From Thermoproteus tenax Kra 1 (GTDB taxonomy: Archaea; Thermoproteota; Thermoprotei; Thermoproteales; Thermoproteaceae): a stretch of 32,000 nucleotides of DNA. Positions 470 to 21,956 of this stretch are shown one piece after another. The DNA lies in the NCBI RefSeq assembly GCF_000253055.1, contig NC_016070.1, positions 330,001 through 362,000 on the forward strand, given 5' to 3'. The position numbers and the translations under genes are program-made. The first letter of the stretch is position 1; each line of letters begins with the position of its first letter. The notes below the pieces were generated by a model. It saw only the letters and a program-made list of their open reading frames with translations, was not told the DNA's origin and did not search any database.

Positions 470-1003
470 GTGAGGGCCTTTTTCCCGGGGAGGTTCCAGC
501 CGCCGCACTGGGGCCACGTCAGGGCCATATCGGCAATTCTGCAGGAGGCGGACGAGGTCGTCGTAGGGGTGGGCTCGGCTCAGTTCAACTACCTTCTCAA
601 GGACCCGTTCACAGCCGGCGAGCGTATATGGATGTTGAGGGAGGGCCTCAGAGACGGCGGAGTCGATCTGGCCAGAGTGGTCGTAGTACCCATACCGAAC
701 GTGGAGAACAACCTCGAGTGGCTGGGGAGAGTTAAGTCCTACGCCCCTCCTTTCGACGTAGTATACACGGGCAATCCCTTCGTGGCCCTCCTCTTCCGCG
801 AGGCGGGCGTGCCCGTCAAACAGCAGCCGCTCTTCGACAGAGGGAGGCTCAGCTCCACCAAGGTGAGGGAGCTCCTGTTGAGGGGCGACCCAGGTTGGGA
901 GGAGCTCGTCCCGCCCTCAGTGGCCCGGATCATAAAACAGCTGGGCGGCGCCGAGAGGCTGAGGATAGCGGCGCAGGGCGAGGCGGAGCCCCACAGATGG
1001 TGA
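470..1003 (+). CDS. Nicotinamide-nucleotide (NMN) adenylyltransferase, archaeal type
   Basis: The ORF is 177 aa. FPGRFQPPHWGH is the (H/T)xGH nucleotidyltransferase motif in the context typical of archaeal NMNAT. It has a GTG start. Confidence 0.8.
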   Translation: MRAFFPGRFQPPHWGHVRAISAILQEADEVVVGVGSAQFNYLLKDPFTAGERIWMLREGLRDGGVDLARVVVVPIPNVENNLEWLGRVKSYAPPFDVVYTGNPFVALLFREAGVPVKQQPLFDRGRLSSTKVRELLLRGDPGWEELVPPSVARIIKQLGGAERLRIAAQGEAEPHRW

Positions 1004-1117
1004 TCAGCCCATGCTTGTGTCGCCACCGGTCGGCACCGCTATCGTTCTTCACCAAGCCTCTACAACTCGGCGGGTTAAAAGTTTCACGCGCCGCGGGCGC
1101 GCGTCGGGCGAGAGGCC

Positions 1118-2002
1118 GTGGGCTACCTAGGCGAGGTTCTGGCCGCTCAGCTCAGGGCGGCGGGCGTAGAGAGAATACGTCTCCCAAGGCGCTTCAAGTG
1201 CTCTTGGGATCCGGCACAGTGCGCCGCCGTGGAGCTCCTGTTGGGCAGAAGGAGGCTCTGCAGAAGGGGGAACGAGGCCTTTCTGGCCAAGGGCGTATGC
1301 GAGGAGGAGATACGCGTGGCCCTCACGCCTCCGCCGGTCCCGAAGATCTACATAGACTTGGGACTATGGGATGTACACACAGACAGAGAGAAGAACGAGC
1401 TCGTGGAGCAGATAGCGGCCTCGATACACGTGGTGCGCTCCCAGCTCTGGGACGGCAATTTGGCGCTGGCGAGGACGCCCTCCGAGTTTCTGGAGAGGTT
1501 CGGGAGGGCCATGAGGGGGATGCGCCACGCGGTGGCGATATCCCCCGATCCTCCGCCCGCCGGCGCCGTCTTCCTCGACCCAGAGGGGCCCTGTAGAGCC
1601 GACGAGGGGCTTCTGAGGGGGTGGGACAGCTTTGTGGTGGGAGGAGTGGTGGACAAGGAGAGGGTCTATAAGGGGGCCTCCAGGAGGCTGGCCGAGTCCG
1701 CGGGGATCCCGCCGGAGAGGAGGTGCAGGATAGAGCTGAGGGGCTCCACCGTGGGAGTCCCCGACAGAATAAATAAAATCATTGAGATTCTCCTCTCCGT
1801 GAGGTTCCGCGGCCTCTCTCTGGAGGACGCAATTCTGGAGGCGCAGGCGAAGAGGGACAAAGTCTACCGCCTTATGAGGGAGCTACAGCGCCTCGGCCCA
1901 AGAGTGCCCAGAGAGAGGGCGCTGGAGATAGCGGCCTGGCTTAAAGCGGGCGAGGACGTCTTGGAGCTCGCGGCGAGGAAGGCCAGAGTGGAGCTGGTAT
2001 GA
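1118..2002 (+). CDS. Probable SPOUT-fold tRNA methyltransferase (Trm10-like)
   Basis: The ORF is 294 aa. FLDPEG...FVVGGVVDKE...IELRGSTVGVPDRINKIIEILL resembles the Trm10 family, and the length fits crenarchaeal Trm10. The assignment is from motif memory only. The stop overlaps the next start (ATGA). Confidence 0.45.
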   Translation: MGYLGEVLAAQLRAAGVERIRLPRRFKCSWDPAQCAAVELLLGRRRLCRRGNEAFLAKGVCEEEIRVALTPPPVPKIYIDLGLWDVHTDREKNELVEQIAASIHVVRSQLWDGNLALARTPSEFLERFGRAMRGMRHAVAISPDPPPAGAVFLDPEGPCRADEGLLRGWDSFVVGGVVDKERVYKGASRRLAESAGIPPERRCRIELRGSTVGVPDRINKIIEILLSVRFRGLSLEDAILEAQAKRDKVYRLMRELQRLGPRVPRERALEIAAWLKAGEDVLELAARKARVELV

Positions 2003-2436
2003 CCTCCTGGGGCAGAGGCCTCCCGCTGGAGCCTGCGGCGATCACCGAGGTGGTGAGGAGGGGGGAGCCGATCCTTGCGTTGATCCACTACGAGGTAGTG
2101 GAGATCGGGGACGGCAATGCCTGCGCCGTCTTTCAACATACTCCCTACGCAGTGAGGATCGGCGGAGTGCTACACGGGGGCGTCATCGCCGCGGCGCTCG
2201 ACGAGACCCTCGGCGTGGCGGTCCTCACAGTGAACCACGGCGCCGATCAAGTCACTGTGGAGCTCAAGATAAACTATCTGGAGCCCGGGAGGGTTGGGCC
2301 CTACAGAGTGTGCGGGCAAGTCGTGAGGAGGGGCTCCAGAATCGTCGTAGCCGAGGGGGAGGTGAGGGACGCAAACGGCGTCGTGATCGCCAAGGCCCTC
2401 GGCACCTGGTACATACTCTCTAAGGCGATCTCGTGA
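1999..2436 (+). CDS. PaaI/4HBT-type hotdog-fold thioesterase
   Basis: The ORF is 145 aa. GGVLHGGVIAAALDETLG followed by long beta-strand segments is typical of PaaI-family thioesterases. It is overlap-coupled on both sides. Confidence 0.7.
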   Translation: MTSWGRGLPLEPAAITEVVRRGEPILALIHYEVVEIGDGNACAVFQHTPYAVRIGGVLHGGVIAAALDETLGVAVLTVNHGADQVTVELKINYLEPGRVGPYRVCGQVVRRGSRIVVAEGEVRDANGVVIAKALGTWYILSKAIS

Positions 2437-2981
2437 GGCCGACGCTGGTATTGCTCGCGCTGACGGCGGCAGGCTTTATTGCAGGCGCCGTCTTGGCCGT
2501 AGTGGATCCCCGCCTGTTGATACTCCTCATGTTGAACAACGAGGCCGTGTTGAAGGGAGCCTACTACGAGCTTTTGACCTCTGTCTTCGTAACGCCGTCT
2601 TTCACAGACTTCGCACTGAACGCCATAGCCCTCTATGTGCTGTACCGCATCTACAACTCAGAGGCCGGCCCAGTGGAGTACGTAGCCTTCTTCGCGGCCG
2701 CCCTCGCGGGGAACTTCGCCACTGTGGCCGTCCTGCCCCCGAGGACTCTATCGGCGGGAGCGTCGGGAGGCATATTCGGGCTTTTCTCGTACTACGTCGT
2801 GGCCGATATGATGAAGTCCCGCCAAGTCAACTGGGTCGGTCCCGCCTTCTTGGGAGCGCTATTTTTGAGTTCGGCCATCTTGCCCCAAGTCAACTGGGTC
2901 GCCCATCTGGGCGGCATCCTCGGCGGAAGCGCCGTGGCGCTCGCAGAGCGCGCGCTGGCGGGGGGCCGCAAGTCTAATTAG
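2433..2981 (+). CDS. Rhomboid-family intramembrane serine protease
   Basis: The ORF is 182 aa and multi-TM. GASGGIFG carries the GxSG catalytic Ser and VAHLGGILGG the catalytic His. Confidence 0.7.
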   Translation: MRPTLVLLALTAAGFIAGAVLAVVDPRLLILLMLNNEAVLKGAYYELLTSVFVTPSFTDFALNAIALYVLYRIYNSEAGPVEYVAFFAAALAGNFATVAVLPPRTLSAGASGGIFGLFSYYVVADMMKSRQVNWVGPAFLGALFLSSAILPQVNWVAHLGGILGGSAVALAERALAGGRKSN

Positions 2982-3045
2982 ATTTGTTCAAAATTAGCTC
3001 GATTATCTATACATAAAATTTAAATATAATTTTAATTCTGCCACT

Positions 3046-3987
3046 ATGAAGGCGAAAATAATTGCCCCAATACTGGCAATATTGGTGTTGATGGCGTTGT
3101 TTATGCACCAGTCTGCGCCTCCGGCATTCCCGCCGGTTAGGCCGCCCCACGGCCTACAAGTCACGCTCCCGCCCTCTTGGTACAGCGGCGACAACGCGCC
3201 AGTGGGGATAACAGACTATGGCGTATATCAGAACGTGCCCTACTCGTACTCCACAAACGAGTTCATGGGCAATTTCACCATCTACTCGGCCTACTTTGAC
3301 TCAAACAGCTCCTCTTATCCCCACAGCTTCTCCATACAGCTCAACGTCGTGTTGAACTACACGTCGGGCGGAACGCCGAGGTACCTCTGGGTCCAGGACG
3401 TGGCCGTCATAAACACGGCTACAAACCAGCTCACGATTGTGGACAACATCTGGAATATAACTACGAGCAACGCCCAGCTCAATAGAAAGCTTATCAGCGG
3501 CAACGGCAAAGTCTACACATATAAAGGCTATACGTATTACGCCTACCAATACCCCTACGCGATCACCTATAGCTATCCACTCTCGGTCTCGCTGTTTGTG
3601 ACAGTCCAGTTGGTGAGAGGATACCCTGTGGTCAACTTCTACTTCGTCTACGGAGGGAAGGTGGTCCAGTACGACTCTGTGACTATAAAGGTGCCCTCCA
3701 CCAGCGCCTCCTACACAGTCGAGGGATACTCGCTTCTGCCCAGCGGCCTCTACGACGACGCAGAGCTTGTGACAGGCGGGCCGGGCGGCGGGACCAGCGC
3801 CATGCCTCTGACGTATAACGCCACCTACACGTTGCAGTATCTCTCGAGCGGCAGACTCGTCTCAGTGCCGCACGCGTACGACTATGGCGCAGACACCGCC
3901 GAGACTGTGTACAAGACCTCTGACGCTGGAGCCAACTACGCCGCCTATCTGGGAGTGGGCACCGAGTACTTCCACAACCTCTGGTGA
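3046..3987 (+). CDS. Secreted thermopsin-like (peptidase A5 family) protein
   Basis: The ORF is 313 aa with an N-terminal signal/anchor (ILAILVLMALF). Blocks PVGITDYG, SIQLNVVL, YLWVQDV and IVDNIWN resemble thermopsin-family blocks as I recall them. It has many N-x-S/T sequons and an AT-rich promoter upstream. Confidence 0.55.
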   Translation: MKAKIIAPILAILVLMALFMHQSAPPAFPPVRPPHGLQVTLPPSWYSGDNAPVGITDYGVYQNVPYSYSTNEFMGNFTIYSAYFDSNSSSYPHSFSIQLNVVLNYTSGGTPRYLWVQDVAVINTATNQLTIVDNIWNITTSNAQLNRKLISGNGKVYTYKGYTYYAYQYPYAITYSYPLSVSLFVTVQLVRGYPVVNFYFVYGGKVVQYDSVTIKVPSTSASYTVEGYSLLPSGLYDDAELVTGGPGGGTSAMPLTYNATYTLQYLSSGRLVSVPHAYDYGADTAETVYKTSDAGANYAAYLGVGTEYFHNLW

Positions 3988-12441: not shown

Positions 12442-12654
12442 GTGTACGTGGAGGAGGCTTGGAGGGCCCTCAAGGCGGCATATGAGGAGCTCGAGCGGTT
12501 TGGGAAGACGGGCGACCCCCTCGTGGAGGCCGCCCTCGCCAACTACTGGGGCCACGTATTGAGGCAGATGGCCTACGGGCTCATCCCCTACGGCTGCCCC
12601 GCCGACAAGATTCCTCCTATACACTCGGCGAACTCCTCCTCGGTCTCCTCGTAG
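12442..12654 (+). CDS. Hypothetical 68-70-aa protein
   Basis: GTG 12442 or 12448 lies 18-24 nt downstream of a strong TATA box (TATTTATAAA, 12419-12428). The first 45 or so aa look helical (VEEAWRALKAAYEELERFGKTGDPLVEAALANYWGHVLRQMAYG). The last 22 codons overlap the 3' end of the convergent McrC-like gene and are low-complexity. Confidence 0.3.
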   Translation: MYVEEAWRALKAAYEELERFGKTGDPLVEAALANYWGHVLRQMAYGLIPYGCPADKIPPIHSANSSSVSS

Positions 12655-13877
12655 TCTGGGTTTACTCTGCTGAATTTCACCTCCGCCTGCGTCGAATCTA
12701 TATTGGCCGACACCGCGGGGCATCCGCCGGCTTGAGGAGGGAGCTCCAGCGCCGTCAAGATCCCCCTCAGCTTGTGGTCTCTGGCCACGTCCGCCAGATA
12801 CGCCACAAGCCTAATGGCGTCGGCCCTCCTCAGCCTTCCCCCGTTCAGACGGCGGTATTTGGCCTCGACAATGACCAAGTTCCTCCCGCTCTCAACGACA
12901 ATGTCCGGCCTAGGCGGCCTCCCCGCTATCCTCTTTATCAGCTTGGACTTGGGCGCTCTATTGAAGTACACTCTGCCGTCGCCCCCCACCTCCACGGCGA
13001 TCCCCTCCCTCATCGCTTTCGCGGCCAACCCGTCCCTCTTGAGCGCCCAGATGGTGAGGGCTAGGACGTAGGTCTCATAGAGCTTTGTGCTCGGGATCAG
13101 GAAGAACTCGGACCCGGCCCTCCTGGCTGTGGCGGGGAGATAGAAGTAGTCGCCCGGATCGAGGTCCTCCGCCCAGAGGTGCGGGACCTCCTCTTCGGCG
13201 TCCTTCTGGAGCACTCTTAGGGCCGACTCCAGCGATGAGAGGTAGAGCTCGAACGCTCTTCCAACTCCCTCGGGGAGACCCGACGCATACCTCCGCGCCC
13301 TCTGGAGGAACTGGCTCAAGGTACTCAACGTCAGAAGGATCGAGCTGGCCAGCCAGACGTTGGGCACTACGACGTTTTTGACGAGGAGCTCTCTGCCCCC
13401 TCTGACGACGAGTTTCCCCGAGCCGGCCTCTACGGCGGCCCGGAAGTATTTGGGCTCCCGCTGGAGCAAGGCTCTGGCCTCCCAGAGGATCCTTGTTACG
13501 CGGACAACGTTGGGCACGTTTGTGGCGACGAGGCTCCTCGAGAGCAAATACAGAGGATAGACGTCGCGCAGAATCTCGTCGGCTCTCTCGATCATTCTGT
13601 AGTAGCGGCTCACCCTAGGCTTTATCACCAGCTCGATGCCGCCCGAGTATCTATAGACGCCGACCCAAAAGCCCGAGAGAACTCTGCGTCCAACGACGTC
13701 GGGCCTCGGAGTGTCCAAGGCTATTCCGCCCACCGGCCCCCTTCTGAAGTAGCCGAGGGTCGCCCGCATATCGAGCAACGCCCTCTTCAGCTCCTCGGCC
13801 GATACGCCGGAGTCGCACCCCCCGAGCGCCTCGTCCACCTCAAGCGCCTCGCCCTCGGTCAGAACGCACCGGCGCAT
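12588..13877 (-). CDS. McrC-like PD-(D/E)xK nuclease subunit
   Basis: The ORF is 429 aa. The N-terminal FWVGVYRYSGGIELVIKPRV resembles the McrC N-domain. The C-terminal PRPDIVVESGRNLVIVEAKYRRL fits PD...(D/E)xK. The ATG lies 1 nt after the McrB-like stop. Confidence 0.7.
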   Translation of the reverse strand: MRRCVLTEGEALEVDEALGGCDSGVSAEELKRALLDMRATLGYFRRGPVGGIALDTPRPDVVGRRVLSGFWVGVYRYSGGIELVIKPRVSRYYRMIERADEILRDVYPLYLLSRSLVATNVPNVVRVTRILWEARALLQREPKYFRAAVEAGSGKLVVRGGRELLVKNVVVPNVWLASSILLTLSTLSQFLQRARRYASGLPEGVGRAFELYLSSLESALRVLQKDAEEEVPHLWAEDLDPGDYFYLPATARRAGSEFFLIPSTKLYETYVLALTIWALKRDGLAAKAMREGIAVEVGGDGRVYFNRAPKSKLIKRIAGRPPRPDIVVESGRNLVIVEAKYRRLNGGRLRRADAIRLVAYLADVARDHKLRGILTALELPPQAGGCPAVSANIDSTQAEVKFSRVNPDYEETEEEFAECIGGILSAGQP

Positions 13878-13878
13878 T

Positions 13879-15072
13879 TCACTCTGGGAGCTCCTGGAGC
13901 AGCGCGTCTGCGATTCTGTACGAGAGGGAGTCCTCTCCGAATATCCTCTTGACGCCCCCTACAAAGTCGGCGAATTGGGAGCGGGATCTGTCGTTGGACG
14001 AGAGCAACGCCCTAAACCGCAGTTTGGGAACGGCGGCGGAGAACTGGGAGAGGACCAGAGAGGAGTAGGCCAGGTCGACGAAGGCCTCCCTCCTCAAATT
14101 GGGCAGAGTGCGCCTCAAGCCTGCGTACGCCGCCAGGAGCCGGGCCAGATCGGTTAAGACGGAGGGGCCGAGCTCGAGGCCCAGGTCCTTGGCCACGTCC
14201 AGCGTCCAGGCGAGCAGCCCGCCGAGGCCCAGCTCCGACCACAGCCCCCTCACCTCCTCTTTGACCCTCGCGCGGTCGCTGAAGTCCAGTCTGACTAACG
14301 TGGCTATGTCGCCCTCCACGGCGTCGCTGGGGGTCAGCTCCTCCACCGCGCGGTCGACGAAGCCGTCCAGAGCTCTCTCGAGCGGCCCGGCCGCCGCTCT
14401 GGGCACGGCCCCCTCCTCGAGGCGCGGCTCGTATCTCTCGTAGAAGGGCGGGACGTAGAGGTAGGCGAACCTCCTGAGGAGGGCGAAGCTCAGCCTAAAG
14501 AGCTGCGCTCTGTCGACGACGTTCATAGTGGCGAAGAGGCGGAAGGAGTAGGGCAGCGGCAGGCCGCCCAGACGAGCCGCCAACTCCTTCAGTTCGCGGA
14601 CGGCGGCTCCTGCGCACTCCTCCACTGCCGCGTCGTCGAGCTCGTGGGCCTTGAGCGCGGGCACTCTGTATCTATACGCCAGGTCTAGCGCAGTGAAGAG
14701 GTCTCCGAAGATCAGGTCTACGTTGGCTCTGTTGAGCTCGTCGAATACCACGTGGCAGGGGCCAGACCCCCTCAACAGAGAGGCCCAGGAGCGGAGCACG
14801 GCGCAGCCGAACGGGCCGTAGGCCCTCCTGAGGCCTCCGCCGGCTCTCTCGTATTTTGCCACAAGATCCTCGTGGGAGAGGCCGTCCCTGCCCACGACGA
14901 GCGCCGGCGCGCAGGCGGTCATGAACTCGGCCGACTCAAGCGCGAGCTTGGTTTTGCCGACTCCGGGCGCCCCCACGAACAAGACGTTTTTTCCAGAGGC
15001 CAACAGAGGCACGACGAACATCCTCAGCTCTTCGATGGCCACAGAGATTGACGGCCACCCGTATATTAGCAT
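13879..15072 (-). CDS. McrB-like AAA+ (GTPase-type) motor subunit
   Basis: The ORF is 397 aa with Walker A GAPGVGKT. VVFDELNRANVDLIFGDLFTALD and LFATMNVVDRAQLFRLSFALLRRF match the E. coli McrB DEINRAN... and NTADRS...ALRRRF blocks. The start is uncertain. ATG 15072 has no TATA box. GTG comp. 15042 lies about 23 nt after TATA-like CTAATATAC, and ATG 15021 is also possible. Confidence 0.8.
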   Translation of the reverse strand: MLIYGWPSISVAIEELRMFVVPLLASGKNVLFVGAPGVGKTKLALESAEFMTACAPALVVGRDGLSHEDLVAKYERAGGGLRRAYGPFGCAVLRSWASLLRGSGPCHVVFDELNRANVDLIFGDLFTALDLAYRYRVPALKAHELDDAAVEECAGAAVRELKELAARLGGLPLPYSFRLFATMNVVDRAQLFRLSFALLRRFAYLYVPPFYERYEPRLEEGAVPRAAAGPLERALDGFVDRAVEELTPSDAVEGDIATLVRLDFSDRARVKEEVRGLWSELGLGGLLAWTLDVAKDLGLELGPSVLTDLARLLAAYAGLRRTLPNLRREAFVDLAYSSLVLSQFSAAVPKLRFRALLSSNDRSRSQFADFVGGVKRIFGEDSLSYRIADALLQELPE

Positions 15073-15346
15073 AGACGCAGAGGGGCACGCCGTCGTTTGG
15101 ATGGGGCACGCGGCTGAACCGGCGCGGCCCGCTGGGGCTCAGGTCTGCGGCCTCTGGCGACGCCCAGGAGAGGCGCACATCAGTCCGCCGTCCCGGGTGG
15201 ACGCAAATGCAATGTAGCCGCCTCCACGGCAGAGGATAACGGCTACAACGCTGGACGAGGGCTGTCTCTACGTTCAATTATTATGACATGCGTTGCGCTG
15301 TTTTTAGCGACCCTACTAAGGAACGCAGGTGTAGCCGTATGTGCCG

Positions 15347-15852
15347 TTTACTATCTTTCGATTTCCATCCCTGAGGAGCAGAGGAGAGGATCAAGACGAG
15401 AATTAGAACGTTTCTACTATCTTTTGATTTCCACACGCGCTCTACGCCGTCCACGCGAGGCTATATAGCATCGCGATATTTCTACTATCTTTTGATTTCC
15501 ACTCAATGGCGATACAGCGTGGGGGCCTGTAGTGCCATGGCTCACATTTCTACTATCTTTTGATTTCCACCGAAGAGGTCTCTGGAGCGGCTGGGGAGCT
15601 AAAATATCCCCTCCCGTACTTTCTACTATCTTTTGATTTCCACCCCCGCTTTTTCTTCCGACCACGTAACTGTGGAAGTCAAACGTGATCTTTCTACTAT
15701 CTTTTGATTTCCACGCACCTACCTCTCTCTGTGTGTGGCCAGTCCATCGGAGATAACCTTTCTACTATCTTTTGATTTCCACAGCTAGGCTACATTTCTA
15801 AGACTGGCGGTGCTCACTTTGTGGAAGCTTTCTACTATCTTTTGATTTCCAC
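15347..15852 (-). CRISPR. CRISPR array, 7 perfect repeats plus 1 degenerate terminal repeat, 7 spacers
   Basis: TTTCTACTATCTTTTGATTTCCAC (+ strand) starts at 15411, 15479, 15547, 15620, 15691, 15759 and 15829. A degenerate copy, TTTACTATCTTTCGATTTCCAT, sits at 15347-15368. The spacers are 42-49 nt and all different. I infer the minus strand for three reasons. The repeat then reads GTGGAAATCAAAAGATAGTAGAAA(G), ending in a GAAAG-type handle. The decayed repeat sits at the low-coordinate (trailer) end. A TATA-like box lies just beyond the high-coordinate repeat. Confidence 0.95.
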
Positions 15853-16740: not shown

Positions 16741-17862
16741 CTAGGCAGCGGTCGGCGTAGCGTTAGGCGTCGCGGGGCTCTTGGCGTATTTGGCGAGGAT
16801 TTCGGCGGCGGACGTCAGCATGACGTCTTCGGCGGTGGCTAGGTCCTGCGCCATTTTCCTTATATCTATTTCGGCGGTCGTGGCGCCGTGTTTGTCACGG
16901 TGGATGTAGTATGTTTTGACTCCTGCGACGCGGTCCCAGAGGGCCGAGAGCAGGAGGGGGTTGTGAGCGGCGAGCACCACGTGGATAGTGGAGGCGGCCT
17001 GGGCGATGTGGTCGGCGAGCAGATCCAGGAGGAACGGGAATAAGTGCGCCTCGGGCTCCTCCAGCGCGACGACGAGGCGCCCCTCTAGGCCGTAGAGCTT
17101 GGCGTAGCTGGCGGCGGACCTCAGGGCGGCTAGGTAGTACACCAGCCGGTACAGGTCCTCGGATACGGAGGGCGACGTCACCTCGTAGTCGTAGTCGTAG
17201 ACGGCGATGGCGCCCTCCTTGGACACCTTGAGCTCTATCTTCTCGCCGAGTCTTTCGGCCAACGTCTCGTTGATCTCCCTCACGACGTCTGGTGTGTACC
17301 TGATGACTCGGCGTATGTTCCAGCCGAGGTCGCTTAGGATGTTGTGGGGGATGACCCTACCCTGGGTGGTTAGGTAGTCGTAGAAGCCGCAGTGGCCCTG
17401 TCGGCACCCCGTGGCCGACAGGCCGTATCTGTCGTATCCGTAGAGGCGGGTCTCCACGAGGATGTCCTGGAATGAGGCCAGGTCGCCCCCGGCGGTGAGA
17501 TACTTCATATCTATCTCGGCTGTCGCGTCTCCTGCCTTCACCTGTAGCCTTAGGCCCTGTCTGTAGTGGATGGAGACGGAGTATTTGGGCATCTCGATGG
17601 TTGGAGTCTTGGTTAGGTCGTAGTTCCGGAAGAGGGCTCTGGGCTCTGTAAACCTGGCGATCCACTCCAGCGGCTCCAAACTGTTCGCTCTTCCGCCATA
17701 TTCCTCATTCAGGCGCAGGAGCCTGGCGGGGTAGCCCAAGACGGCGAGGGCGTCCAGAATATTCGACTTGCCCCCCGCCGGTGGGCCTATAAGCACAGTG
17801 AGGGGGGCTATCTCCAGCTCAGCGTATGCGACGCTTTTGAAGTCTCTGATGGCCACCCGCAC
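16741..17862 (-). CDS. ABC-type (AAA_15/AAA_21-like) ATPase, stand-alone
   Basis: The ORF is 373 aa. It has Walker A GPPAGGKSN, signature-like SEDLYRLVYYLAAL, Walker B LVVALEEPEAHLFP and H-loop LAAHNP. GTG 17862 lies about 25 nt downstream of TCATATAAAAA (comp. 17883-17893). Confidence 0.8.
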   Translation of the reverse strand: MRVAIRDFKSVAYAELEIAPLTVLIGPPAGGKSNILDALAVLGYPARLLRLNEEYGGRANSLEPLEWIARFTEPRALFRNYDLTKTPTIEMPKYSVSIHYRQGLRLQVKAGDATAEIDMKYLTAGGDLASFQDILVETRLYGYDRYGLSATGCRQGHCGFYDYLTTQGRVIPHNILSDLGWNIRRVIRYTPDVVREINETLAERLGEKIELKVSKEGAIAVYDYDYEVTSPSVSEDLYRLVYYLAALRSAASYAKLYGLEGRLVVALEEPEAHLFPFLLDLLADHIAQAASTIHVVLAAHNPLLLSALWDRVAGVKTYYIHRDKHGATTAEIDIRKMAQDLATAEDVMLTSAAEILAKYAKSPATPNATPTAA

Positions 17863-17943: not shown

Positions 17944-18231
17944 CTAGGGGTTCCGCCCCCTTTCCTGCCTTAGGAGGCGTCTGCCCTTCCTGGTGAGGCG
18001 GTAGTAGACGTGGTGTTTCCGCACCTCGTGGCCTAGCTTGTAGCGGGCCTCGGTCCGTTTGAGGGTTTTGCCGCCTCTTGCCCGCTCGACGAGGCCCAGG
18101 GCCTCGAGCTTTTCCAGGATCTCGAGGACCCTCTGTAGGGGGATGCCCGTGTTTACCGCGATGGATTTGCCGTAGAGGTCGTCCTCAAGCCCTAGCGAGA
18201 TCCCCGGCGAGCCCCACCCCCGCCGAACCAC
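17944..18231 (-). CDS. Small winged-helix DNA-binding protein (DUF2250-like)
   Basis: The ORF is 95 aa. IAVNTGIPLQRVLEILEKLEALGLVER is HTH-like. KHHVYYRLTRKGRRLL is a wing/C-terminal motif reminiscent of archaeal DUF2250 proteins. A TATA-like box on the minus strand lies at 18247-18256. Confidence 0.65.
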   Translation of the reverse strand: MVRRGWGSPGISLGLEDDLYGKSIAVNTGIPLQRVLEILEKLEALGLVERARGGKTLKRTEARYKLGHEVRKHHVYYRLTRKGRRLLRQERGRNP

Positions 18232-18446
18232 ACTGTGGAGCAGGCGCCTAAAAAGGCGGATTCCTACGAGGCCGGGGGAAGCCCGATAGGGAGATGATGT
18301 ACCTCCACTAGGCCGACCTCTGACGAACCGCGCGCAAGCCGCCCCCGGAGGGCCCGCCGGTTCTGCTCTATCTATTCTCTAGCTTAAAAATCTTCCGCCT
18401 CTGGCGCGAGGGGTGAGTGCATTTAAACGTGGAAAATAGCGCATGT

Positions 18447-19826
18447 GTGTATGTGTTTGTTAGGAAGGTCATTATTAGAAACTTCAAGAGCATCGGGGAG
18501 CTGGAGCTTGAGCTGAGGCCTGGGGTGAACCTCCTGGTGGGCCCCAACGGGGCTGGGAAATCCAACGTCTTGGAGGCGATTAGGTTCGCCAGGAGGGCTC
18601 TGGTGGAGGCGGCCTCGCCGTATCTCCCATATGCGCCGGACTACCTCTCGCCGCTTGACGTGATCTACGGCCGGGACCCGAGGCGGGAGGTGGCGCTGGG
18701 TTTTGGCCTGGAGCTCTACGGCGAGGAGGGCGGGGAGTGGCTGTCGGCCTATGCGGAGTTCACCACCTACTTCAGGTACAGGCCGCAGCCCTACGAGACG
18801 ATTGAGCCCGTCCGCCACGTGGTAAAAATCGGCGACACCCAGGCGGAGATAGACAGAGGAGGCGTCACCATCACGGCCCCAAGGGAGCACTTCGACAGAG
18901 CGATGAAGTGGATCAAGGAACATGGGAAGCGTATACTACCTTTACCTTTCAAACTAGCCGAGCCTAAGGAGGAGGGCGACAGGACAGTCGTCTCGTATAG
19001 GTGGGACATGGAGGTGCCGCTACAGCTCGAGGGCCTTAGACACGTGCTGTGGCCGGGGCCGAGGGGGAGGGCGTCGGAGGACTTGTTGGCGTGTAGCCTA
19101 GTCGCCCGGAGGACTCTCACGCCGTTCCCGGTCGCGTTGGGGAGGGCCAAGAGGCCGAGGGGGGTCCCCGTGGATCTGTCGCCGTGGTTCTGTCTGGATG
19201 GAGTCTTAGATGCCGTGAGGGGGGTTCTCTGGAGGGTGGTCTTTCTCCGGCATGTGGAGAGGCGTGTGGAGCCTGTGCCTATCGCCGGCGGAGATGTGCT
19301 TGATGAGCGGGGGCGGAACGTGGCCGCGGTGCTGTTTAGCTACAGGGGGAGGTTTGGGAGGAATCCCGAGTCTGTCGACAGAGCTCTGGCCGCCCTCTTT
19401 CCGGGCGTCCTGCTGGAGGTTAGGCAGCTTTACAACAGCGCTCTTCTTGTCGCCAGGGAGGGGGATGTGGAGCTTCCCCCCTCCAACATCCCCGACGGCT
19501 TGCTTAAGCTGGTGGTGCTGATGCTGGCGGTGGATTTGGGCCCCTCGCTGCTCCTCGTGGACGAGGTGGAGAACAGCATGCACGCGAGGCTTCTGGAGTA
19601 CGTCGTGGACGTGTTTAACGGGCTTAACGTGCCGGTCCTCCTGGCCACGCACTCCCCCGTGGTTGTGGATCTGGTCGACCTTGAGAGGATCTACTTCCTG
19701 TCTAAAGGCCCTGGGGGGACCCGCGCGGAGGCGGTTCCTGACCCCGAGGAGCTGAGAAGGCGGCTGGGCGAGGCCGGGGTTGCGATTAGCGACTATTTCT
19801 TTTACACGAAGAGGTACGGCAGGTGA
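18447..19826 (+). CDS. ABC-type (AAA_15/AAA_21-like) ATPase with large insert
   Basis: The track ORF starts at GTG 18417, but that codon sits immediately upstream of, and abuts, the TATA-like GCATTTAAACG (18419-18429). In-frame GTG 18447 or 18453 fits a leaderless start (VFVRKVIIRNFKSIGEL...). Motifs are Walker A GPNGAGKSN, signature-like PDGLLKLVVLMLAV, Walker B LLLVDEVENSMH and H-loop LLATHSP. Confidence 0.8.
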   Translation: MYVFVRKVIIRNFKSIGELELELRPGVNLLVGPNGAGKSNVLEAIRFARRALVEAASPYLPYAPDYLSPLDVIYGRDPRREVALGFGLELYGEEGGEWLSAYAEFTTYFRYRPQPYETIEPVRHVVKIGDTQAEIDRGGVTITAPREHFDRAMKWIKEHGKRILPLPFKLAEPKEEGDRTVVSYRWDMEVPLQLEGLRHVLWPGPRGRASEDLLACSLVARRTLTPFPVALGRAKRPRGVPVDLSPWFCLDGVLDAVRGVLWRVVFLRHVERRVEPVPIAGGDVLDERGRNVAAVLFSYRGRFGRNPESVDRALAALFPGVLLEVRQLYNSALLVAREGDVELPPSNIPDGLLKLVVLMLAVDLGPSLLLVDEVENSMHARLLEYVVDVFNGLNVPVLLATHSPVVVDLVDLERIYFLSKGPGGTRAEAVPDPEELRRRLGEAGVAISDYFFYTKRYGR

Positions 19827-20356
19827 TGGCCGCGCGCTTTCTATTCGTGGAAGACCAACACGGAGTCGAATTCCACCAAAGGCTTATAGAAAAGCTACAG
19901 AACTCTGGCATAGTACCTCACAGCTTGGCTCCTAAGATCGAGAGGATACCGACCGGCCTCTGTAATTCCTCCCTGGGGAGAAAAATTGCTGCGAGGTTAT
20001 TCGGGTTAGAGCGGTGGCGTATACTATTTGTTATAGACTCCGAGGGGGAGGAGAAGAGGGCGGCGGCCGACGCGAGAGTTCTCAGGCATCTGAGAAGCCA
20101 CGAGTCGCTCAGGGATAGGTTGGATAATGTAAGAGTTGTGGTGGTTCACCCACGTCATGAGAAGTGGCTTTGCATGGGGTTGGGCGGCAGAAGCTGTAAT
20201 TCAGATCCAGAGAGTGAGCTTGATAGAATCCTTGGGAGGGTGTATAAGAAAGACGAATTAGCTAAGCAGGCTGGCCGTCTAAATGTGGAGGGGCTAATGT
20301 CGGATGGCGACTTCAGGGAGTACATCGAGGGGCTTAGGTGGCTTTTGTCCTCTTAG
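19823..20356 (+). CDS. Small Toprim-like protein (DUF4276/RloB-like), coupled to upstream ATPase
   Basis: The ORF is 176-177 aa. GTG 19823 or ATG 19826 overlaps the ATPase TGA (19824-19826). FLFVEDQHG (E10), ILFVIDSEGEE (D72/E74) and VVVHPRHEKWL (E113) follow the Glu / acidic cluster / E-x-W order of Toprim-derived partners of AAA_21 ATPases. This is from memory of the family consensus, not a search. Confidence 0.55.
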   Translation: MMAARFLFVEDQHGVEFHQRLIEKLQNSGIVPHSLAPKIERIPTGLCNSSLGRKIAARLFGLERWRILFVIDSEGEEKRAAADARVLRHLRSHESLRDRLDNVRVVVVHPRHEKWLCMGLGGRSCNSDPESELDRILGRVYKKDELAKQAGRLNVEGLMSDGDFREYIEGLRWLLSS

Positions 20357-20573
20357 TAGCGCTGGTGGCGTAAGTTTCAGACTGATGCGCATTGAAGGGA
20401 GGTGCGGAGGTTGGTGCGGCATGCTGTGTGGCGGCCGCCTACCATGTGGCGAAGGCGCCGAACTAGGGTTGCGATTTCTGTCTGTATTTCTATGAGTCTC
20501 AGCTGGCCTCTGTGGGAATAGGACTCTGAATTTAGGGGGACCGGCTTCTTTTTATACAGTTTTTCTACGGGGC

Positions 20574-20861
20574 ATGTTGTTGGATAACGGGCTGAGGCTT
20601 GTGTTGGATAGGTTTGCTGCGCCTACGGCGGCTGCGGCGGTGAGGGTCGGCGTTGGATCGCTGTTTGAGGGGAGGGGCGTTCGTCAAGAGGGGGAACCTC
20701 CAGTACGTCAAAAAGAAAGCCGAGCTCTACCAGCGGACAGCCGGCAGGCCGCTGGACAGGGTGATCTTGGTGACGCCGTTTTACACGACAGGAACCCAGA
20801 CCTGGTCAGAGCAAAGGCAGAGAAGTACGGCATAGACATCGTAGCCCCCGAAGACCTCTAG
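20574..20861 (+). pseudogene. Chimeric remnant: M16-peptidase N-terminus joined to a frameshifted DUF3782-type C-terminal fragment
   Basis: MLLDNGLRLVLDRFAAPTAAAAVRVGVGSLFEGRG is an insulinase-type N-terminus that stops just before the expected HxxEH motif. From about 20677, another frame reads FVKRGNLQYVKKKAELYQRTAGRPLDRVILVTPFY. After a 2-nt slip at about 20785, the original frame reads DRNPDLVRAKAEKYGIDIVAPEDL*. This parallels the C-terminus of the 20988..21956 protein (LKRSDLPTIVKKRELYERARGAKVAAVYVVTPYIDDRYPERVKAMAKDLGLEVVYP). Confidence 0.55.
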
Positions 20862-20987: not shown

Positions 20988-21956
20988 CTACTCCTGGGGT
21001 GGGGCCGGGTAGACTACCTCCAGCCCTAGGTCTTTGGCCATTGCCTTCACCCGCTCGGGGTATCTGTCGTCTATATAGGGGGTGACCACGTAGACGGCGG
21101 CCACCTTGGCCCCCCTGGCCCTCTCGTAGAGCTCCCTCTTCTTCACTATGGTGGGCAGGTCGCTCCGCTTCAGCGAGGACATAATCTCGACGATTATCAG
21201 CCTCCCGTCTCTGACCACCACGTCGTAGTCCACCTCGGAGGGGGTGCCGTATACGTAGCCCTCTCTGTCGTAGAGGACCTCCTTGGACGCAGACCACCCG
21301 GCCTCCTTCAACATGGCCCTCATGCCCTCCCTAAAGGCCTCCTCGCTGATCACCCCCCATCTGGCCCCCAGCGCGTCCAGCTTCCTCTCCAGCTTGTTGA
21401 TGGCCCTCCACAGCTCCTCGACGTCCTTCTTAGTGGCCATCCTCTCCTCGAGAGCCCTCAGCTCCTCTCTCGTGGCCAGGGCCTTCAGATCTTCCTTCGT
21501 AGCCATCCTCTCCCCAAGCGCCCTGAGCTCCTCCTTGGTGGCGAGGCCCTTTAGATCCTCCTTTGTAGCCATAACTTTTCTCACCTCCTCCAACCGCTCT
21601 TCTAGCCTCTTGAAGTCCTCTCTCGTGACAAGAGCCTTCAGATCCTCCTTAGTGGCGAGGGCTTTGAGGTCGTCCTTAGTGGCGAACGCCTTAAGATCGT
21701 CCTTTGCGGCCATCCTGGCCTCCAGATCCTTTATCTCCTCCTTGGTGGCCATTTCTCTCCTCACCTCCTCCAGCCGCTCCTCCACCCTCTGTATCTCCTC
21801 CCTCAAAGATCTCACGTCCTCCTTTGTGGCCAAGCTCTGCCACGGCGTAAGCTTGGCGAGGGCTCGGTAGAGCACCTCGGGCCTCGCCTCCAGGGCCTCG
21901 GCGATTATCTCGGGGTGCTCGAGAAGAACCCTCCTCACCTCCTCTGCGACGCCCAC
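20988..21956 (-). CDS. Coiled-coil tandem-repeat protein (ATKEDLKAL repeats) with C-terminal PD-(D/E)xK-like domain (DUF3782-type)
   Basis: The ORF is 322 aa with 11 copies of the A-T-K-E-D-L-K-A-L-type nonapeptide between aa 42 and 182. The C-terminal EVDYDVVVRDGRLIIVEIMSSLK...VVTPYIDD...LGLEVVYP resembles the restriction-endonuclease-like fold of archaeal DUF3782-type proteins. GTG 21956 lies about 24 nt after TTATAAAAAA (comp. 21976-21985). Confidence 0.75.
   Translation of the reverse strand: MGVAEEVRRVLLEHPEIIAEALEARPEVLYRALAKLTPWQSLATKEDVRSLREEIQRVEERLEEVRREMATKEEIKDLEARMAAKDDLKAFATKDDLKALATKEDLKALVTREDFKRLEERLEEVRKVMATKEDLKGLATKEELRALGERMATKEDLKALATREELRALEERMATKKDVEELWRAINKLERKLDALGARWGVISEEAFREGMRAMLKEAGWSASKEVLYDREGYVYGTPSEVDYDVVVRDGRLIIVEIMSSLKRSDLPTIVKKRELYERARGAKVAAVYVVTPYIDDRYPERVKAMAKDLGLEVVYPAPPQE
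21411..21833 (-). repeat. In-frame 27-nt periodic coding repeat (11 nonapeptide units, interspersed with EERLEEVR linkers)
   Basis: Units start at aa 43, 70, 84, 92, 101, 110, 130, 139, 152, 161 and 174 of the 20988..21956 protein. The DNA copies differ at many synonymous positions. Confidence 0.6.

Follow-up and report, generated by a model that had tools for sequence, protein, structure and literature searches.

The 32,000-nt stretch of the Thermoproteus tenax Kra 1 genome analyzed here (contig NC_016070.1, forward-strand positions 330,001 to 362,000; hereafter the window, in which coordinates are counted unless another locus is named) carries two adjacent genes on the same strand, the first for an ATP-binding cassette (ABC) ATPase and the second for a small protein of 176 amino acid residues related to the DUF4276 and RloB families. 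The pair is a diverged archaeal branch of a known class, that of the ABC ATPases with a DUF4276/RloB-type partner, the architecture of which has already been described. We regard it as probable, if well short of certain, that the two genes are co-transcribed and constitute a self-contained module, with a Toprim nuclease of the DUF4276/RloB branch as the second partner and an antiviral mechanism resembling that of PARIS, OLD or Gabija. An initial annotation of the window, made from the letters alone, had proposed a split pair of this kind and had staked the idea on profile or structural similarity of the small protein to DUF4276/RloB, on conservation of its acidic residues and on synteny of the two genes; all three were examined, and each was found.

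The gene pair and its ATPase

The open reading frames (ORFs), the ATPase motifs and the TGATG stop/start overlap are located exactly where the initial annotation had placed them (Table 1). The ATPase possesses two candidate in-frame starts, GTG 18417 and GTG 18447, the latter giving a protein of 459 residues. Its TGA stop codon (19824-19826) has its A in common with ATG 19826 of the small gene, a 1-nt overlap (sequence GGTGATGG), and overlaps the alternative start GTG 19823 by 2 nt; translation of the two genes is probably coupled. The small protein shares 99% identity with a T. tenax database entry and 85% with Pisl_1951 of Pyrobaculum islandicum. The deposited GenBank model of the T. tenax protein (P0001, 169 residues) begins at GTG 19847, which cuts off the conserved first β-strand (RFLFV) right before the invariant Glu-Asp. 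Since the homologues and the P. islandicum model favor 19823/19826, the deposited start appears to have been mis-called.

TATA-like A/T boxes can be read in the sequence at 18383-18391 (CTTAAAAAT) and 18422-18427 (TTTAAA), each approximately 25-30 nt ahead of one of the candidate GTG starts, a spacing which would give a leaderless mRNA. The promoter of the pair probably lies within the upstream segment that moves with it (Table 1). The lower G+C content of the small gene, to which the initial annotation had drawn attention, is real in T. tenax (0.520 versus 0.622 for the ATPase gene; at third codon positions, GC3, 0.593 versus 0.793) and is present in P. islandicum as well. It is not a feature of the family, being found in only 8 of 18 homologous loci with a mean difference of +0.007, and the dip was accordingly rejected as a family-wide sign of separate acquisition and is regarded as lineage-specific.

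The first protein is an ABC ATPase of the AAA_15/AAA_21 group with all four motifs intact. It passes the Pfam gathering scores of AAA_21 (1.7e-21; 78 bits, cut-off 27) and AAA_15 (43.7 bits, cut-off 32.1), the matches to AAA_23, SMC_N and AAA_15 being confined to the first ~45 residues. The best PADLOC model is HEC-01A (7e-24); AbiLi is matched at 6.2e-17 over residues 8-427, and GajA, PtuA and Old more weakly. The NCBIfam MAD3 equivalog attains 55.2 bits against a cut-off of 420. Two other PADLOC matches were rejected as indicators of specific membership: that to "AriA" has the coordinates and model length of the generic Pfam AAA_21 match, and that to "mad3" has the model length of Pfam AAA_15.

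Alignment of 12 orthologues reveals invariant patterns at each motif, namely G-N-x-x-G-K-x-N in Walker A, a D-G-x-x-K core in the equivalent of the signature motif, DE-x-ENS-x-H in Walker B and the D-loop, and HSP in the H-loop, with a stretch of approximately 300 residues, from Walker A to the signature equivalent, hardly conserved. Because the four motifs are invariant and this stretch is barely conserved, the ATPase is predicted to be catalytically competent and to carry a variable insert. The long insert described in the initial annotation is present, its length being ~310 residues from Walker A to the PDG motif and not ~330. In the work on PARIS and HEC, variable ATPase regions are tied to trigger recognition and defense specificity (PMC11464382; bioRxiv 10.1101/2024.01.29.577857). 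The P. islandicum ATPase orthologue is 90% identical.

Family relations and predicted fold of the small protein

When 1.84 billion representative proteins were searched exhaustively with HMMER at a threshold of E<=1e-3, 87 relatives of the small protein were recovered, seven of them at E<=1e-30; nearly all are 160-200 residues long and align from end to end. A word-indexed protein search gave two matches with the single protein and ten with the alignment. The T. tenax protein itself found no match in NCBIfam, PHROGs or PDB sequence searches, the phmmer matches in PDB being at chance level. Sixty-six relatives were assembled into an alignment (A1), and its members were scanned individually against Pfam and PADLOC. 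The model matched most often was PADLOC mad4 (37/66, best 1.5e-8), and HEC-01B was matched by 21 members (best 5.3e-6), AbiLii by seven, ATPase-Toprim_I-B by four and PDC-M38B by some. Among Pfam families, DUF4276 (PF14103) was matched by 19 of the 66 at E<=1 (best 2.2e-6), colinearly with the model, RloB (PF13707) by 11 (best 4.1e-5) and DUF3226 by three. The top RloB score among the relatives inspected singly is 22.5 bits against a gathering score of 31.5. To judge from these profile matches, the family is a sub-threshold sister of DUF4276 and RloB rather than a member of either Pfam family; the UniRef label of the P. islandicum orthologue already reads "DUF4276 family protein." The partner had been singled out as miniature, a description that does not hold, 176 residues being the usual size in this class (the Pfam models comprise 192 and 195 positions).

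The three segments picked out in the initial annotation (FLFVEDQHG, ILFVIDSEGEE and VVVHPRHEKWL) are all present. Residues are numbered here from ATG 19826, such that E9, D71, E73 and E112 correspond to its E10, D72, E74 and E113. These four positions are among the most conserved columns of A1: E9 (65/65), D71 (66/66) and E112 (66/66) are invariant, as is D10 (65/65), and position 73 is Glu in 39 and Asp in 22 of the 66 sequences (E or D in 61), the T. tenax form being D-S-E. Also conserved are C46 (64/66), H88 (64/66), C116 (62/66), W114 (63/66), Y140 (64/66), K142 (64/66) and F163 (66/66). The Cys and His residues could form a zinc site or a disulfide. In the crenarchaeal subgroup, C124 and H111 are invariant as well.

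An AlphaFold2 model built with A1 is of high confidence (predicted local distance difference test score, pLDDT, 94.7; predicted template modeling score, pTM, 0.90); the model from the single sequence was unusable (pLDDT 43.8). The former comprises β1 (residues 3-8), α1 (11-26), β2 (37-40), α2 (50-58), β3 (64-71), α3 (77-90), β4 (102-107) and α4 (111-118), followed by a C-terminal helical bundle, and this predicted succession of elements agrees with that of Toprim-like proteins; the Toprim fold is of three-layer α/β type, and its four-stranded parallel sheet has the order 2-1-3-4. In the model β1, β3 and β4 carry E9/D10, D71-x-E73 and E112 at their C-terminal ends, a predicted placement that corresponds to the layout of a Toprim metal site. 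Toprim domains are described as having a conserved Glu close to β1, with a DxD motif after β3, and DUF4276 and RloB have been assigned to them in the Menshen paper (PMC12065111); both features, a conserved Glu where β1 ends and, after β3, an acidic motif of DxD type, are found here. A search of BFVD with the model returned one significant match, a myovirus "RloB-like protein" (E=2.9e-4, probability 1.00; TM score 0.51 over 184 columns). Similarity to DUF4276/RloB was found, in short, through the matches of the relatives and through this phage fold. The Toprim assignment is made because of the link to DUF4276, RloB and HEC-01B together with the literature, the order of secondary-structure elements and the E...DxE...E pattern; it has no direct match to any solved Toprim structure.

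Two sets of profiles span both partners. The phage profile phrog_3940 (537 positions) matches the N-terminus of the ATPase at positions 6-46 (1.4e-12), and its positions 348-469 match two relatives of the small protein, P0052 (6.9e-6) and P0082 (8.4e-3); one fused phage protein therefore spans both partners in the same order. Likewise, the fused ATPase-Toprim_I-B models of PADLOC match both, on the small-protein side via the relatives. A tblastn search of plasmids with P0052 gave no match.

Distribution and genomic surroundings

A scan of one genome per species (185,579 species), using a restrictive pattern derived from a 23-sequence subset, identified 15 loci, all in Thermoproteota (Desulfurococcales, Thermofilales, Acidilobaceae, Pyrolobus, Thermoproteus sp. 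CP80 and Vulcanisaeta distributa). An ATPase homologue lies directly upstream on the same strand in all 14 loci with upstream DNA; these homologues are 32-40% identical where full-length, and the junctions range from a 4-nt overlap to a 38-nt gap. The same order is found in P. islandicum and in five euryarchaeal loci (Methanoperedens, Methanosarcinales and one further metagenome-assembled genome, MAG), the partners there being AAA_15/AAA_21 ATPases of 432-447 residues; these junctions show a 14-nt overlap (locus L018), a 4-nt overlap (L021) or a 5-nt gap. The synteny expected in the initial annotation is thus observed in every informative locus, from Thermoproteota to Methanoperedens, with the ATPase immediately upstream. 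Across 12 loci the pairwise identities of one partner strongly track those of the other (Spearman 0.76; Mantel r=0.86, p=2e-4). When the flanking ORFs were compared all against all, no third conserved gene emerged in the 15 loci, nor is there one in the euryarchaeal loci; a larger conserved operon was rejected, as no gene besides the pair is common to the loci.

The neighbors at other loci are mixed and include the defense-type proteins Cas1, Csa1/Cas4, Csx1-CARF, HEPN, PIN (2) and EVE (2), as well as Cas_APE2256 and PaREP1. In three Methanoperedens and Methanosarcinales contigs, the pair is immediately preceded by a same-strand uvrB gene some 70-80 nt away (L017 2675-4600, L021 2647-4578, L022 3-434). 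The ATPase is in two or three ORF fragments in L003, L007, L010 and L012, of which L010 is the isolate genome of Thermoproteus sp. CP80, and a frameshift affects the small gene of Vulcanisaeta distributa JCM 11216 (L015 4001-4452). These broken genes may be decaying copies; errors in MAG assembly are the alternative.

The region is common to T. tenax and P. islandicum at 83-91% nucleotide identity. A blastn block comprising the pair and 200 nt upstream (18246-19827) matches P. islandicum L016 8226-9811 at 91% identity and is discrete from the 83% block on its left. At several other loci the G+C content of the pair is below that of its surroundings. The distribution of the pair is patchy and mobile. 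In P. islandicum a G+C-rich insertion of 186 nt (L016 9811-9997) falls exactly at the stop/start junction, corresponding to window position 19826/19827; it has GTGAT on either side and uncouples the two genes. No Rfam family matches the insertion, which folds no better than shuffled sequence. Just 3′ of the T. tenax pair, a remnant (20562-20676) is 87% identical to the beginning of the peptidase M16 gene of P. islandicum, and a gene for a 187-residue protein, which in that species lies between the pair and the peptidase gene, is absent; these two observations point to a deletion or rearrangement at the 3′ border of the pair.

The CRISPR array and the McrBC-like genes lie at the distances from the pair given in the initial annotation (Table 1). 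No cas genes are present among the window ORFs scanned. The P. islandicum array has 36 copies of a near-identical repeat and occupies the same position (L016 ~900-3400), between McrB and the second ATPase. The McrB-like protein is an AAA_5 ATPase of 397 residues (6.5e-17), and the McrC-like protein of 429 residues has a weak Pfam McrBC match (3.8e-4), under the gathering score. The second ATPase, 87% identical in P. islandicum, and the adjacent DUF2250 winged helix-turn-helix (wHTH) protein are divergent from the pair, with no Toprim partner evident; in P. islandicum three unrelated genes lie between them and the pair. The N-terminal half of the PDDEXK_10 protein consists of tandem KEDLKAL-type repeats, and DNA repeats with periods of 66 and 27 occur at 21424-21704. 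Ten further large ORFs scanned outside 12.6-22 kb are ordinary metabolic, transport or unassigned genes, and tRNA and Rfam scans of the window gave no tRNA gene and no Rfam match.

Table 1. Features of the window, in order of position.
Feature	Position	Strand	Remarks
McrBC-like pair	12588-15072	-	Ends ~3.3 kb upstream of the ATPase/small-gene pair
CRISPR array, 8 repeats (TTTCTACTATCTTTTGATTTCCAC)	about 15345-15852		Ends ~2.6 kb upstream of the pair
Second AAA_21/AAA_15 ABC ATPase	16741-17862	-	373 aa; PADLOC HEC-01A 5.7e-19, PDC-M07A 2.8e-17
DUF2250 winged-helix protein	17944-18231	-	2.9e-24; precedes the second ATPase
Upstream region moving with the pair	18246..18446	+	blastn block; probable promoter carrier
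ABC-type ATPase gene (ORF), AAA_15/AAA_21 family	18417..19826	+	469 aa from GTG 18417; Pfam and PADLOC matches
Walker A/P-loop GPNGAGKSN	18540..18566	+	Read from sequence
Signature-motif equivalent PDGLLKLVVLMLAV	19491..19532	+	Read from sequence
Walker B and D-loop LLLVDEVENSMH	19548..19583	+	Read from sequence
H-loop LLATHSP	19638..19658	+	Read from sequence
Gene junction GTGATG	19823..19828	+	Read from sequence
Small ORF	19823..20356	+	177 aa (start GTG 19823) or 176 aa (start ATG 19826)
Small DUF4276/RloB-like (Toprim-type) predicted nuclease gene	19826..20356	+	176 aa
Codons for E9-D10	19850..19855	+	End of β1; predicted Toprim catalytic glutamate
Codon for C46	19961-19963	+	Outside the canonical Toprim acidic set
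Codons for D71-S72-E73	20036..20044	+	End of β3; predicted D-x-E equivalent of the Toprim DxD metal-binding motif
Codon for H88	20087-20089	+	Outside the canonical Toprim acidic set
Codon for E112	20159..20161	+	Just after β4, in HEKWLC motif
Codon for C116	20171-20173	+	Outside the canonical Toprim acidic set
PDDEXK_10 nuclease-domain protein	20988-21956	-	C-terminal PDDEXK_10 (1.8e-33) and DUF3782

Related systems and competing interpretations

HEC-01 (Hma-embedded candidate 01) is likewise a two-gene system of an ABC ATPase and a small TOPRIM protein (bioRxiv 10.1101/2024.01.29.577857). HEC-01A is the best model for the T. tenax ATPase and HEC-01B is matched by the 21 relatives mentioned above; the T. 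tenax small protein itself has no HEC-01B match, and the pair lies outside any Hma helicase system, in an archaeal hyperthermophile. MADS is a multi-gene, methylation-based system, the Mad3-Mad4 components of which are of the same partner types, AAA_15/21 ATPase and DUF4276, with mad4 the most-matched model among the relatives; Mad4 is a DUF4276 protein (PMC12065111). The T. tenax locus, by comparison, has no methyltransferase or other mad genes nearby, and identification as a MADS system was rejected on that ground and on the MAD3 score, which is far under the cut-off. AbiL of Lactococcus, a bacterial, plasmid-borne abortive-infection module, combines an AAA_15/21 ATPase (AbiLi) with a small RloB-type Toprim protein (AbiLii), again as two genes; its matches are weaker than those of mad4 and HEC-01B, and the T. 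tenax small protein itself has none. Both AbiL and MADS3-4 have been described as containing an ABC ATPase alongside a TOPRIM protein (PMC11464382).

PARIS resembles the pair in being split into an ABC ATPase (AriA) and a Toprim nuclease (AriB) that co-evolve. Among split systems it alone has a solved mechanism, in which binding of a trigger causes the ATPase scaffold to free the nuclease, which then cleaves tRNA (PMC11464382). AriB, however, is a DUF4435 protein of ~300 residues, and the structural match to it (8ux9_A) is not significant; DUF4435 was not matched by the T. tenax protein and is not among the 25 families most frequently matched by its relatives. The OLD family and Gabija GajA contain the same two modules fused, whereas T. 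tenax has two separate ORFs; the PADLOC models Old, GajA and ATPase-Toprim_I-B match the T. tenax ATPase, and the small-protein family profile has no detectable similarity to P2 Old. Formally, the pair stands outside several of these groups: outside Pfam DUF4276 and RloB by score, OLD and GajA in being unfused, PARIS in having no DUF4435 protein, and MADS by score and context. Its nearest relatives, if distant ones, are the DUF4276/RloB-type pairs HEC-01, AbiL and MADS3-4, as the initial annotation had suggested in part; PARIS, OLD and Gabija, which it had also named, resemble the pair at the level of the superfamily, and PARIS AriB and the OLD/Gabija Toprim are not the nearest.

By analogy with these systems, the ATPase would oligomerize and keep the nuclease inactive within a complex, and its poorly conserved insert of ~300 residues would detect a cue derived from the invader. 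Binding or hydrolysis of ATP would then free or activate the nuclease, the predicted metal site of which (E9/D10, D71-x-E73 and E112) may cut DNA, or tRNA as in PARIS, and such cutting would stop replication of the virus, possibly at the expense of the cell. Complex formation, trigger, substrate and antiviral role are all predicted on this analogy. The defense-type neighbors in the window, namely the McrBC-like proteins, the CRISPR array, the PD-(D/E)XK protein and the second AAA_21 ATPase, together with those named above for other loci, would favor an antiviral role.

Several observations weigh against this antiviral nuclease module. The T. tenax small protein matched no Pfam family at E<=1, and its sole PADLOC match was to mad4 at E=0.031. 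Ten relatives inspected singly were all under the DUF4276 gathering score (best 26.2 versus 30.2 bits). A Foldseek search of PDB with the good model gave nothing at E<=1e-3, AriB (8ux9_A) standing at rank 49 with E=0.17 over 81 columns; the top-ranked structures were generic α/β folds (lumazine synthase and RadA). The family profile gave only chance-level matches to PDB sequences, and hhalign found no similarity between it and P2 Old (probability 0.4%). Many neighbors at the other loci are housekeeping genes (proteasome, TFIIB, MoaC, SUI1). Finally, the single member of HEC-01 that was tested did not protect E. coli against phage (bioRxiv 10.1101/2024.01.29.577857), which leaves the function of DUF4276-type pairs outside MADS putative even for the class as a whole.

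Some of these observations would suit an addiction or selfish module akin to a toxin-antitoxin (TA) system, in which a nuclease toxin is curbed by the ATPase with no dedicated sensing of viruses, and which persists through post-segregational killing or by hitch-hiking on mobile DNA. The Pfam description of the AAA_21 domain reads "putative AbiEii toxin, Type IV TA system"; the pair is a strict two-gene unit in varied contexts, with pseudogenised copies in five loci and near-identical copies in two genera; and HEC-01 has no defense phenotype (bioRxiv 10.1101/2024.01.29.577857). We nevertheless consider such a module unlikely, given that all characterized ABC-ATPase and Toprim systems (OLD, Gabija, PARIS, AbiL) are anti-phage (PMC11464382) and that plasmid and integrase signatures and tRNA genes are absent from the window; the TA reading overlaps in mechanism with that of abortive infection, which makes the difference between them one of emphasis. 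A housekeeping role, with a RecF/Rad50-like ATPase and a Toprim nuclease acting in the processing of DNA breaks or in RNA maturation after the manner of RNase M5, seems more improbable again. The Toprim protein RNase M5 is similar in size (PMC12065111, citing PDB 6Z2B), UvrB lies directly upstream in the three Methanoperedens/Methanosarcinales loci, and several loci have solely housekeeping neighbors. The N-terminus of the ATPase does match RecF, Rad50 and SMC models, but only in the P-loop region of ~45 residues and far under the family cut-offs, whereas the best profile matches are all to models of defense systems. The patchy occurrence (15 loci among the 185,579 species, one genome each and a restrictive pattern), the pseudogenised copies and the evidence of horizontal transfer also argue against it.

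The order McrB, CRISPR, second ATPase, wHTH and pair, common to T. tenax and P. islandicum, might indicate that the pair is part of a larger system requiring the second AAA_21 ATPase with its DUF2250 wHTH protein and/or McrBC and the CRISPR array. This has very little to recommend it: the island is 83-91% identical in the two species, which are therefore not independent observations, three unrelated genes split the second ATPase and wHTH from the pair in P. islandicum, and the 15 other loci and the euryarchaeal loci have nothing but the pair in common. A MAD3 score of 55 bits against 420 and the lack of a nearby methyltransferase also speak to the contrary. Least credible of all, in our estimation, is that the small protein is a non-catalytic adaptor or regulator that resembles DUF4276/RloB, with its Cys and His residues as a structural metal site. 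It would account for the lack of a significant match to any solved Toprim structure and for the conservation of C46, H88 and C116 outside the canonical Toprim set; that four acidic residues are invariant where a Toprim metal site would have them is hard to explain without catalysis.

The self-contained ATPase-nuclease module thus remains the preferred reading. A more far-reaching version of it, which we put forward tentatively and think rather less than probable, is that the pair is the founding member of an archaea-specific ABC-ATPase/Toprim immune clade, extending from Thermoproteota to Methanoperedens and missed by the models of defense finders, with an extra C46/H88/C116 site beside the Toprim metal site and a PARIS-like release of a small RNase or DNase from an ATPase cage in response to an archaeal virus protein. 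If true, it would give archaea, and hyperthermophiles, their first demonstrated example of ABC-ATPase/Toprim abortive infection.

ABC-ATPase and Toprim modules (OLD, Gabija, PARIS, AbiL, MADS3-4, HEC-01) are a major theme of bacterial immunity. Of these, to our knowledge, the pairs of DUF4276/RloB type are the most poorly understood, and we know of none studied in archaea. Because the clade scores under the Pfam DUF4276/RloB cut-offs and barely registers with the PADLOC partner models, censuses of archaeal defense may under-count it; alignment A1 and the conserved residues are a basis from which a dedicated model could be built. The compact, thermostable partner of 176 residues, with its high-confidence model, suits structural and biochemical work on the control of a nuclease by an ATPase. 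Since the architecture is known and the P. islandicum orthologue is already labeled DUF4276, the gain is incremental: the finding introduces no new principle, and provides a useful annotation and a good candidate for archaeal defense.

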